From an uncultured Bifidobacterium sp. (GTDB lineage: Bacteria > Actinomycetota > Acidimicrobiia > Acidimicrobiales > Ilumatobacteraceae), in contig CAYFNN010000003.1 of NCBI GenBank assembly GCA_964344465.1, forward strand, positions 11,801 through 41,700: 29,900 bases of DNA. The letters are read 5' to 3'. The notes beneath the pieces are model-generated. The model was not told where the DNA came from and ran no database searches. It was given only the letters and a program-made list of their open reading frames with translations. Both the position numbers and the translations under genes were made by a program. Below, piece after piece: positions 10,067-12,376 of the stretch (positions within the stretch are counted from its first letter, which is position 1; every line of letters begins with the position of its first letter).

Positions 10067-12284
10067 GCTTCGTGGTGCGAAGCCGCAGGCTGTTGGTAAC
10101 TACGAACACACTCGAGAACGCCATTGCCAAACCTGCCCACATTGGATTGAGCAGGCCGAACGCAGCAAGCGGCACCGCGGCCGCGTTATAGACGAACGCC
10201 CAGAACACATTCGCGCTGATCGTACGCAGCGTGGCGCGTGACAAGAGGATTGCGTCTGGCACGAGCCGCAGGTCGCCACTCACGATGGTGAGGTCGCTGG
10301 CGTTCATCGCCACGTCGGTGCCGGTGCCCATGGCGATGCCGACGTTGGCCTGCGCAAGAGCCGCCGCATCATTGACTCCGTCGCCGACCATCGCCACGGC
10401 ATAGCCGCGCTCTTGTAGATCGGCGACAACACGTACCTTCTCTTCGGGCAACACGCCGGCAATCACATGCTGCTCATCGGTCTCGATGCCCACTTGTTTG
10501 GCTACCGCGAGCGCAGTCGCACGACTGTCGCCGGTCAGCAGGATGGGTCGCAAGCCGAGTTCACGCAGAGCCGAAATGGCAGAAGCGCTGTTTGCCTTCG
10601 GTCGGTCGGCTACCACACACACGCCACGAACGGCGCCGTCGATTGCCACCAGAACGGCAATATTGCCAACGGCTCGCGCGGCATCGATGGCTGCCGACAT
10701 CGCTTGGGGAATGAGCACCAACTTGCGGCGCATCAACACCTCATTACCCACCATCACACTGCTGCCAGCAACACTGCCGATGGCACCCATACCCGGCAGA
10801 TTTTCGAAATCGCCTACCGCAGCAAGGTTGCCGACTTCGGCCCGCGCCGCCGATGCAATGGCCTTGGCGACTGGGTGTTCGCTGGCGTGCTCAAGTGCAC
10901 CTGCTGCAGCGAGAACATCCGACCGCGACGCACCTTCGTTACATACCACGTCGACTAACTGCATCGCACCGGTGGTGACGGTGCCGGTCTTGTCGAACAC
11001 CACGGTGTCGATGCGTCGCGTGCCTTGCAACACGTCGGCACCCTTGATGACGATGCCCATCTGTGCCGCACGACCACTGCCCACCATCAATGCAGTGGGT
11101 GTTGCCAGGCCGAGCGCGCACGGACACGCAATGATCAACACCGCGACCGAAGCAGTGAAGGCCTGCGACAAATCGCCATCCAGCCACCACCAAATGGCGA
11201 ACGTGACGAGTGAAATCACAATCACCGTTGGCACGAACACGCTGCTCACTCGATCGGCGAGTTTCTGCACGGGTGCCTTGGTTGCTTGCGCGTCACGAAC
11301 CAGGCGGGCCATCTGCGCAAAAGTTGATTCGGCACCGACACGCGTCGCCTGCACGACGAGGCGACCGGTGAGATTCACCGTGGTGCCGGTCACGGATGAT
11401 CCAACCGTTACATCGATCGGCACACTTTCACCCGTCAGCATCGATGCATCGACTGACGAACTCCCCTCGCGGACCACGCCGTCGGCCGCGATGATTTCGC
11501 CAGGTCGCAGGACGATGAGGTCGCCCACCTGCACTGCCGATGCGTCGATGAGAAGTTCCTCGCCGCCCCGAACGACCGTGGCGGTGCGGGCACCGAGTGC
11601 CAGCAGCGATCGCAGCGCATCGCCAGCGCGGCGCTTGGCGCGGGCCTCGAAGTAACGGCCGGCAAGGAGGAAGATCGTGACGGCGACTGCGACCTCCATA
11701 TATATGTGGTCAATCTCTGACGAGGTCATGCTCATGCCGGTGTGGTCTTCGGCGGCGTTGCCCCATACGAGTGCCCATACCGACCAACCCATCGCGGCGA
11801 TGATGCCGATGGAGATGAGCGTGTCCATCGTGGTGGCACGGTGGCGTGCGTTCATCCAGGCGGCGCGATGAAACGGCGCAGCACCCCAGACGACGACTGG
11901 CAACGAGAGTGCAAGTGCCCACCACTTCCAATTCGAGAAATGCAAGGCGGAAATCATCGACAGTGCAGTGACAGGTACGCCAGCAATCAGCGACACGGTC
12001 AGACGTGTGCGCAACATCGCTACGCGTTCGTTGGTTTCTTTGTCGAGCATCTCCGGTGTGGTGTCGGCAAGTAGACGGGCGCGATAGCCGGCTTGTTCGA
12101 CCTGCGCTACGAGTTGTTGGGTGGTGATGCCACCTTCCAGTGTGATTCGGGCAGTTTCGGTAGCAAAGTTGACGGTGGCACTTACACCGTCCATCGAGTT
12201 GAGCGATTTCTCGACTTTGGTCGCACAGGCGCCGCAGGTCATGCCCGAGATGGCGAGGTCGACCTGCTCAAGTTGTGCAGTCAC
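10029..12284 (-). CDS. copA: copper-translocating P1B-type ATPase
   Basis: N-terminal HMA GMTCGAC, TGES, CPCALGLATP, DKTGT, EHP, GDGVNDA, YN and MAFSS motifs (P1B-1 signature). GTG start; an in-frame TAA at 12323-12321 prevents upstream extension. Confidence 0.92.
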   Translation of the reverse strand: MTAQLEQVDLAISGMTCGACATKVEKSLNSMDGVSATVNFATETARITLEGGITTQQLVAQVEQAGYRARLLADTTPEMLDKETNERVAMLRTRLTVSLIAGVPVTALSMISALHFSNWKWWALALSLPVVVWGAAPFHRAAWMNARHRATTMDTLISIGIIAAMGWSVWALVWGNAAEDHTGMSMTSSEIDHIYMEVAVAVTIFLLAGRYFEARAKRRAGDALRSLLALGARTATVVRGGEELLIDASAVQVGDLIVLRPGEIIAADGVVREGSSSVDASMLTGESVPIDVTVGSSVTGTTVNLTGRLVVQATRVGAESTFAQMARLVRDAQATKAPVQKLADRVSSVFVPTVIVISLVTFAIWWWLDGDLSQAFTASVAVLIIACPCALGLATPTALMVGSGRAAQMGIVIKGADVLQGTRRIDTVVFDKTGTVTTGAMQLVDVVCNEGASRSDVLAAAGALEHASEHPVAKAIASAARAEVGNLAAVGDFENLPGMGAIGSVAGSSVMVGNEVLMRRKLVLIPQAMSAAIDAARAVGNIAVLVAIDGAVRGVCVVADRPKANSASAISALRELGLRPILLTGDSRATALAVAKQVGIETDEQHVIAGVLPEEKVRVVADLQERGYAVAMVGDGVNDAAALAQANVGIAMGTGTDVAMNASDLTIVSGDLRLVPDAILLSRATLRTISANVFWAFVYNAAAVPLAAFGLLNPMWAGLAMAFSSVFVVTNSLRLRTTKLTQQTAFVHATR

Positions 12285-12285
12285 G

Positions 12286-12358
12286 TGGGTCGCCCGGGGC
12301 TCGAACCCGGGACCTGCGGATTAAAAGTCCGTTGCTCTACCAACTGAGCTAGCGACCC
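12286..12358 (-). tRNA. tRNA-Lys (UUU), CCA not encoded
   Basis: Reverse complement GGGTCGC TA GCTC AGTTGGTA GAGC A ACGGA CTTTTAA TCCGC AGGTC CCGGG TTCGAGC CCCGG GCGACCC A folds into a 73-nt cloverleaf with one A.C mismatch at the top of the anticodon stem; followed by CGTG rather than CCA. Confidence 0.95.
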
Positions 12359-12370
12359 GATGGGCTTTTC

Positions 12371-12376
12371 AGGCTA
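12371..12376 (-). promoter_or_regulatory. -10 element for tRNA-Lys (and probably copA)
   Basis: TAGCCT 12 nt upstream of the mature tRNA 5' end; the same hexamer precedes iolC, the M14 peptidase and the methyltransferase. Confidence 0.6.

Follow-up and report, generated by a model that had tools for sequence, protein, structure and literature searches.

A tRNA-Lys(UUU) gene abutting the copA start codon in freshwater Acidimicrobiia: a candidate case of tRNA punctuation in a free-living bacterium

The transcripts of animal mitochondria are reportedly punctuated by tRNAs, an organization described by Ojala, Montoya and Attardi in 1981. Transcription units that combine tRNA and protein genes are also known from Escherichia coli, e.g., thrU-tyrU-glyT-thrT-tufB and metY-nusA-infB. 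Mitochondrial tRNA punctuation has been reviewed (PMC10941002, PMC11996679), and an archaeal tRNA-Lys was found within the 159-nt 5′ untranslated region of TK0306 (PMC4247193). Primary leaderless mRNAs were described in Mycobacterium (PMC4633059, PMC3898074), Propionibacterium acnes (PMC3848588) and Streptomyces (PMC4681348). According to a passage in the P. acnes study, leaderless mRNAs are also made in E. coli through cleavage by the toxin MazF (PMC3848588). The present analysis deals with a stretch of 29,900 nucleotides (nt) from a member of the Ilumatobacteraceae (GenBank assembly GCA_964344465.1, contig CAYFNN010000003.1, positions 11,801 to 41,700), hereafter called the window. In this stretch, the start codon of copA, the gene of a copper-exporting ATPase, lies one base behind a tRNA-Lys(UUU) gene on the same strand. 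The closest known system is animal mitochondrial tRNA punctuation. The reading preferred here, with a probability of roughly 0.65, is that co-transcription with the tRNA and cleavage at the tRNA 3′ end yield a leaderless or nearly leaderless copA mRNA.

The window belongs to contig C3 of a metagenome-assembled genome (MAG) referred to as G000, which comprises 1.64 Mb in 273 contigs, is 90% complete and holds 26 tRNAs. It was compared with G010, a relative within the genus (94% complete, 44 tRNAs), and with G036 (46 tRNAs), an outgroup that belongs to the same order but to a different family. The genus consists of free-living freshwater Acidimicrobiia with small genomes. The nearest copA relatives are found on GenBank MAG contigs of lake, river or estuary origin, labelled Ilumatobacteraceae, Acidimicrobiia or Actinomycetota. 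The features at the junction, in positions of the window, are the following:

12371..12376, minus strand: putative -10 hexamer TAGCCT of the tRNA-Lys/copA unit (conserved motif, commonest -10 hexamer of the genome)
12286..12358, minus strand: tRNA-Lys(UUU) gene without encoded CCA, discriminator A at 12286
12285, minus strand: C74, the lone base between discriminator and start codon, a C in 21 of 21 junction variants
12282..12284, minus strand: GTG that starts copA; no other in-frame start occurs between the anticodon-loop TAA and Met15
10029..12284, minus strand: copA, a P1B-1 copper(I)-exporting P-type ATPase of 751 amino acids (aa), assigned by Pfam, NCBIfam and motifs
12084..12257, minus strand: N-terminal HMA domain of CopA, residues 10-67 (Pfam PF00403, 5.8e-15, profile positions 2-61 of 62)

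The tRNA gene scores 70.3 bits with the Rfam tRNA model RF00005 over 12286..12358 (gathering score 29), and ARAGORN places a tRNA-Lys(ttt) at 12285..12358 on the minus strand. It has the cloverleaf, the 7-bp acceptor stem, the anticodon UUU and the A73 of an elongator tRNA-Lys(UUU), and it is the sole tRNA-Lys(UUU) found in the tRNA censuses of G000 and G010. The 3′ strand of the acceptor stem, GCGACCC, ends at 12287 and is followed by the discriminator A at 12286 and a C at 12285. On the minus strand, the region thus reads ...caacTAGCCTgaaaagcccatc-GGGTCGC...GCGACCC-A-C-GTG ACT GCA CAA CTT GAG CAG GTC GAC CTC GCC ATC TCG GGC ATG ACC TGC... A single base separates the discriminator from the GTG, so the tRNA gene abuts a coding sequence on the same strand with essentially no spacer, as in tRNA punctuation. 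An Rfam match to 'Plastid-ycf2 5UTR' at 12285-12358 on the plus strand was rejected as an artefact of the tRNA antisense strand; it reached 28.5 bits, below the gathering score of 65.7.

The copA frame is closed upstream by a TAA in the anticodon loop (12323..12321). The next in-frame start after the GTG is the ATG at 12242 (Met15). The first HMA strand lies upstream of this ATG, and its use as a start would remove that strand because the Pfam HMA match covers residues 10-67. The positions that the first-pass annotation, made from the letters alone, had assigned to the tRNA, the C, the GTG, the TAA and the ATG all agree with the sequence, ARAGORN, Rfam and the list of open reading frames (ORFs). 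The translated protein carries GMTCGAC in the HMA domain as well as CPC, DKTGT, YN(x)4P and M(x)2SS, as expected of a P1B-1 ATPase of the CopA/CtpV type. Pfam matches to HMA, E1-E2_ATPase and Hydrolase (HAD) were obtained, and NCBIfam TIGR01511 (ATPase-IB1_Cu) scored 511 bits (cut-off 397).

The junction was followed through the MAGs of the genus, in which 32 loci with tRNA-Lys(UUU) gave 21 distinct junction sequences. Only three sequence variants of the tRNA occur among the 32 loci, one of them, in one relative, with compensatory changes in the T stem. The gene order is conserved in most species: the hemolysin-III family gene hlyIII, the tRNA and copA. From the end of hlyIII through the tRNA to the copA start, identity ranges from 72 to 88% across the genus. 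The spacers between C74 and the copA start are distributed as follows:

0 nt after C74: 18 junctions, 15 with GTG and 3 with ATG
1 nt after C74 (g): 1 junction, with ATG
2 nt after C74 (gc): 2 junctions, with ATG

The start codon is therefore GTG in 15 and ATG in 6 of the 21 junctions; its first base switches between G and A, and the TG is invariant. The first-pass annotation had named the spacing in relatives as a check, and a distance of 0-2 nt was indeed kept in 21/21 junctions, with no variable long spacers. All three Lys/copA junctions with a spacer of 1-2 nt start with ATG, and 15 of the 18 without a spacer start with GTG. This distribution may hint at a stronger codon being needed where the start is not terminal, the numbers being small and the sequences related.

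Owing to in-frame insertions and deletions, between 5 and 14 residues separate the copA start from the first HMA strand, and in all cases the start is found at the edge of the tRNA. What is constrained is therefore the distance to the tRNA and not the distance to the domain. Codons 4-14, located upstream of Met15, were compared among 14 distinct 'standard' sequences. The proportions of synonymous (pS) and nonsynonymous (pN) differences were 0.70 and 0.18, giving a pN/pS of 0.26; in the shifted frames, the same stretch gave 1.06 and 5.4. This purifying selection in the copA frame means that codons 4-14 are translated, and the RTG (GTG or ATG) at the tRNA edge is the only start available to them. 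This RTG is where copA really begins. The claim that copA begins at the GTG rather than at Met 12242 is thus borne out by the switching between GTG and ATG, by the fixed position despite the indels and by the in-frame selection on codons 4-14.

Moreover, the junction persists at loci where the DNA upstream of the tRNA differs (L012, L017, L019, L035 and L047). An assembly artefact, which had been raised as a concern, is excluded since the same junction recurs in many independent MAG assemblies, with 21 distinct sequences. Outside the genus, a search of 400 other Acidimicrobiia genomes from 177 genera for the pattern of a tRNA-Lys 3′ end followed by RTG and G-M-x-C did not return the Lys/copA junction, and the two nearest copA genes there are not preceded by a tRNA. 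Among the genomes searched, the Lys/copA junction is therefore specific to the genus.

Signals of its own are lacking in front of copA. The 15 nt before the GTG are formed by the acceptor and T stems of the tRNA (CCCCGGGCGACCCAC) and contain neither a TANNNT nor a Shine-Dalgarno (SD) motif, as had been noted in the first pass. Positions -15 to -7 (CCCCGGGCG) belong to the acceptor/T stem and show no primary leaderless promoter; the hexamer at -12..-7 is CGGGCG, and no TANNNT occurs at -12..-15. An E. coli-type scan, whose consensus is unsuited to this phylum, detected no terminator-like or sigma-70-like site between the tRNA and copA and no terminator-like site between hlyIII and the tRNA. In contrast to the copA start, the tRNA does carry a promoter-like element. 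At the hlyIII loci, the conserved motif caacTAGCCT/TAGTCTgaa precedes the tRNA by 12 nt; in the other context, the distance is about 58 nt. A transcription start is predicted at about 12364-12365, which would leave a 5′ leader of 6-7 nt for RNase P.

The genome as a whole provides the background for these observations. In G000, TANNNT is found at -12..-15 ahead of the first start codon in 182 of 1283 long ORFs, with a background of 0-6 per position. The first T is located at -12 in 93 ORFs, at -13 in 38, at -14 in 27 and at -15 in 24, and the SD signal is weak genome-wide. The ORFs with a TANNNT hexamer at -12 were taken as a set of 107 putative leaderless ORFs, in which the hexamer is present by construction. 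TAGCCT is the most frequent hexamer at this position (20/107), the consensus being TAG[C/G][C/G]T. GTG is the start codon in 71% of the set, and a C is found at -1 in 78 of the 107 (73%). The TANNNT peak and the GTG/C context therefore make the organism look like a heavy user of leaderless, mostly GUG-initiated mRNAs, and the host appears to translate such messages routinely. The C followed by GTG at the copA junction matches the usual 5′ context (C|GTG) of the putative leaderless genes. The proposal that the TAGCCT of the tRNA is the promoter gains from the same comparison, as this is the organism's typical -10 hexamer and is conserved upstream of the tRNA. Each first-pass expectation accessible to computation thus turned out as foreseen.

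The copA junction is one of several. Further abutments were sought by a tRNA census of the whole MAG, Pfam scans and genus-wide searches. In G000, five tRNAs have a start codon 0-3 nt downstream. If gene starts were random, about 0.04 abutments would be expected among the 26 tRNAs, and about 0.4 if gene starts were confined to intergenic DNA. The Lys/copA abutment is far beyond chance. Besides tRNA-Lys, four tRNA genes of G000 have the start codon of a real gene 0-2 nt behind them, and three of these junctions are conserved genus-wide:

L026:76-860: tRNA-Pro(GGG)/SRAP, C74-[g/a]-ATG-TGY in 19 genomes; the SRAP profile 1-214 matches residues 1-219
L028:30-962: tRNA-Ala(UGC)/purU, CCA-c-ATG, C-aac-ATG, C-ttc-ATG or CCA-cgc/cac-ATG at 13 loci; the ACT domain begins at residue 5
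L025:209-2088: tRNA-Met/biotinyl-carboxyltransferase fusion, RTG at +0 or ATG at +3 in 7 genomes; the biotinyl domain begins at residue 4
L024:140-1076: tRNA-Leu(UAG)/alanine-racemase-like gene (alr-like), 5 genomes, ATG at +2/+3 in three and at +14 and +18 in two; start less certain

The start codon of SRAP is fixed by the catalytic Met-Cys2 N-terminus of this protein family; at this junction, too, no TANNNT precedes the start. The tRNA-Leu/alr-like junction is probably built like the others. In G010, 6 of 44 tRNAs are followed within 0-3 nt by a homology-supported start, including tRNA-Ser(CGA)/tadA and a second tRNA-Met in front of an ABC transporter gene. Up to three candidates were found in G036, namely Ser/tadA, Arg/ogt and Gln/glmU-like, with predicted N-termini. 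Judged from gene layout, the arrangement is a general habit of the lineage, with at least five junctions, and not a coupling specific to copper. The first-pass annotation had suggested that synthesis of the copper ATPase is coupled to tRNA processing; the layout supports the link to the tRNA, and the special role of copper falls away since other genes abut tRNAs in the same way.

Some candidates were not retained. The tRNA-Phe/acyltransferase pair of G000 (+7 nt) is not conserved and looks like an island site. The tRNA-Gln/glmU-like and tRNA-Val/DUF3499 pairs were not counted, as their Pfam domains begin only 25-75 residues into the ORF and translation probably starts further downstream. The 3′ ends of tRNA genes show additional peculiarities in the genus. 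In a more distant subclade (L078-L080 in G022, G009 and G019), a CCA-encoding tRNA-Pro(GGG) is followed 1 nt later by an ATG (t/c-ATG-AAx...). In G011 (L075/L083, contig C56) and G004 (L076, contig C10), about 0.7 kb is inserted directly after tRNA-Pro(GGG), and the downstream SRAP gene is still preceded by a copy of the tRNA 3′ half, suggesting the integration of an element into the 3′ end of tRNA-Pro. In G004, the 3′ end of tRNA-Phe is repeated 2.4 kb downstream of that tRNA (L144/L145, C20:7882-10372). The DNA after tRNA-Phe differs in every genome examined, and the tRNA-Phe 3′ end is a probable island integration site.

The preferred mechanism can be outlined as follows. tRNA-Lys(UUU) and copA would form one transcription unit driven by the TAGCCT promoter, possibly joined by read-through from hlyIII. 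The space between the two genes is too small to hold a terminator, a promoter or a ribosome-binding site, and nothing would stop transcription from running through the tRNA into copA. RNase P would trim the short 5′ leader. An endonuclease, likely an RNase Z-like protein, would then cut the tRNA 3′ end after A73 or C74, followed by CCA addition. This 3′ cut would be obligatory since it concerns the only tRNA-Lys(UUU) gene. The 3′ product, 5′-p-(C)GUG..., would be translated as a copA mRNA that is leaderless or has a leader of 1 nt.

The processing machinery of the host was surveyed from its gene content. Half of the tRNA genes of G000 encode CCA, and C74 is encoded in 13/13 of the CCA-less ones; the same pattern was found in G010 and G036. 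The universal C74 may mark the 3′-processing site or a requirement of the CCA-adding enzyme, of which a family member (PolyA_pol/CCA-adding) is present. Depending on whether the cut is made behind A73 or behind C74, the C at the copA junction would open the mRNA or be the final encoded base of the tRNA. As all CCA-less tRNA genes encode C74, the C may belong to the tRNA, and the mRNA may start at the G of GUG. A cut after C74 would leave a perfectly leaderless 5′-GUG, and a cut after A73 a leader of 1 nt. The first-pass proposal of a cut behind the discriminator of a CCA-less tRNA is refined here as to the exact site, which may be behind C74 instead. A metallo-beta-lactamase (MBL) ORF of about 281 aa, present genus-wide, aligns over its full length with NF000806 'ribonuclease Z' and is likely an RNase Z.

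Several points weigh against this mechanism. The RNase Z-like protein scored 323.5 bits on NF000806 (cut-off 363) and 119 on TIGR02651 (cut-off 293). Among solved structures, an MBL-fold 'arylsulfatase' matches it best, and the RNase Z of B. subtilis matches only its first 104 residues. Some of the abutted tRNAs (Ala/purU and Ser/tadA) encode CCA. In model bacteria, CCA blocks RNase Z, and the classical enzyme does not cut right after CCA. At these junctions, another nuclease or another specificity would therefore be needed. Propionibacterium acnes, which has no RNase Z, cuts a few nt downstream of its tRNAs and between the two Cs of CCA (PMC3848588). Furthermore, the minimum-free-energy fold of a long precursor loses the cloverleaf, the energies being nearly equal. 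Among public metatranscriptomes, only two riverine sets, with 4% of the query words, gave matches; their contigs cover the tRNA, mostly the tRNA-Lys of other organisms, one piece spans hlyIII and the tRNA of a relative, and none crosses the tRNA-copA junction. At one locus, L037, the copA GTG is preceded only by a degenerate remnant of about 25 nt of the tRNA-Lys 3′ end (ggtttcgagcctcaggcgacccac; L037:1190-1219, GenBank JANQZQ010000040.1), with an AT-richer stretch and an MBL-fold hydrolase gene upstream of the remnant. copA can apparently persist without an intact tRNA in front of it. Finally, the relatives in all junction counts are kin, so the counts overstate independence.

Part of the evidence could be explained in other ways. 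copA might be translated from a precursor that is uncut, or cut only at its 5′ end, by SD-less internal initiation at the GUG, and the 3′ cut would in that case serve only to separate the two products or to inactivate the message. This idea shares the co-transcription with the preferred mechanism, and given the weak SD signal genome-wide, SD-independent internal initiation must exist for some genes. It is nevertheless unlikely: the 12-15 nt before the GUG are paired in stable tRNA stems (-32 kcal/mol for the tRNA alone), every functional tRNA-Lys(UUU) needs the cut, and a spacer of 0-2 nt matters for a 5′-terminal start but not for internal initiation. Alternatively, the tRNA 3′ end could arise by a cut further downstream and exonuclease trimming, as for the CCA-encoding tRNAs of E. 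coli. Each transcript would then give either a tRNA or an intact copA message, and the translated copA RNA would be a minor product of another nuclease or of rare cuts at the junction. Such a scheme would fit the encoded CCA of half of the G000 tRNA genes, the sub-cut-off RNase Z assignment and the downstream or within-CCA cuts of P. acnes, another actinobacterium without RNase Z (PMC3848588). However, it would make the production of tRNA-Lys(UUU) and of CopA mutually exclusive and gives no reason for a strict spacing of 0-2 nt at five different junctions; it is judged improbable.

The last two possibilities are given very little weight. A promoter inside the tRNA gene might start transcription at the G of the GTG, making copA an ordinary primary leaderless mRNA with a triphosphate end. 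The C at -1 and the G at +1 match the putative leaderless start context of the genome, but the sharp genomic TANNNT peak at -12..-15 has no counterpart at copA, where CGGGCG occupies -12..-7, and the SRAP junction is alike; this origin of the mRNA is very improbable. Likewise, the junction could have arisen passively in a streamlined genome whose tRNA genes are hot spots of integration and rearrangement; the start would then be mis-assigned, or copA would be expressed poorly. tRNA 3′ ends are indeed rearrangement sites in this genus, as seen from the remnant at L037, the tRNA-Pro insertions in G011 and G004 and the tRNA-Phe copy in G004. Yet no second copy of the 22-nt tRNA 3′ end (≤3 mismatches) is present in the 29.9-kb window, its GC content is uniform and the order hlyIII-tRNA-copA is conserved in most species; on these grounds, a tRNA-targeted genomic island was rejected. 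With codons 4-14 under purifying selection, the RTG invariant and CopA intact with all its catalytic motifs, mere juxtaposition would be a surprising outcome.

The preferred reading, cleavage of a joint tRNA-copA transcript, can be extended to the lineage. Somewhat short of an even bet, it is tentatively proposed that a set of genes with housekeeping and repair functions, namely copA, SRAP, purU and the genes of an acyl-CoA carboxylase, TadA and an ABC transporter, is expressed only as 3′ products of tRNA precursors, their own promoters and leaders having been lost. Their synthesis would be tied to the activity of tRNA promoters, i.e., to growth rate or stringent control, and to the capacity for tRNA 3′ processing. 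C74 would mark the cut that leaves a perfect 5′-GUG or 5′-AUG, and these streamlined Acidimicrobiia would possess a mitochondria-like layer of gene expression.

As for the neighbouring genes, hlyIII ends 27 nt ahead of the tRNA with a TGA stop at 12388..12386:

12386..13195, minus strand: hemolysin-III / PAQR family gene hlyIII (Pfam HlyIII, 1.6e-35, residues 70-261); longest ORF, start uncertain

On the other side, an ORF of 241 aa without a Pfam match (9341-10066 of the window, plus strand) is convergent with copA, the two sharing 38 nt at the copA 3′ end. A CsoR-type copper repressor (PF02583) was not found in G000, which, in a MAG that is 90% complete, is weak evidence of absence.

If the proposed route is real, tRNA punctuation would not be an oddity of organelles but a general route by which genes can be expressed with neither promoter nor ribosome-binding site. 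This would have consequences for annotation, as gene-calling programs tend to pass over starts in contact with a tRNA, and for the prediction of operons and promoters in MAGs, where such genes would seem promoterless. It would also bear on leaderless translation and the recognition of messages, since the mRNAs would have monophosphate ends and often GUG starts. With regard to genome streamlining, the arrangement would suggest how small genomes can drop regulators; no CsoR-type repressor was found in G000. With its precursor, candidate nuclease and start codon defined, the locus further offers a testable case. In full-text literature searches, no description of tRNA-abutted leaderless genes in free-living bacteria was found.

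Compared with animal mitochondria, the likeness lies in tRNA genes that abut coding sequences. In the organelle, the mRNA ends are set when RNase P and RNase Z (ELAC2) excise the tRNAs, and the messages have little or no 5′ leader and no SD. In contrast to mitochondria, each tRNA appears here to have its own promoter and would punctuate only its 3′ side, the hlyIII stop lying 27 nt before the tRNA. Moreover, the host is a free-living bacterium with ordinary operons elsewhere, and stop codons completed by polyadenylation play no part. In the mixed tRNA-protein units of E. coli and in the archaeal case, a protein gene is transcribed from the promoter of the tRNA ahead of it and the tRNA is released from the joint transcript, as is proposed here. 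Their mRNA keeps a leader with a ribosome-binding site, whereas here no leader would be left and the processing site itself would create the translation start.

The leaderless mRNAs of actinobacteria share the 5′-terminal AUG or GUG as signal, with GUG being common, and the host genome carries the same -10 signature at a fixed distance. Those mRNAs have triphosphate ends defined by a promoter, whereas the copA RNA would have a processed monophosphate end and has no -10 box of its own. MazF resembles the proposed route in that an endonuclease cut, rather than transcription initiation, would create the leaderless 5′ end. Cleavage by MazF is induced by stress, leaves a 5′-hydroxyl and is debated; in contrast, the cut at the copA junction would be a constitutive housekeeping step of tRNA maturation.

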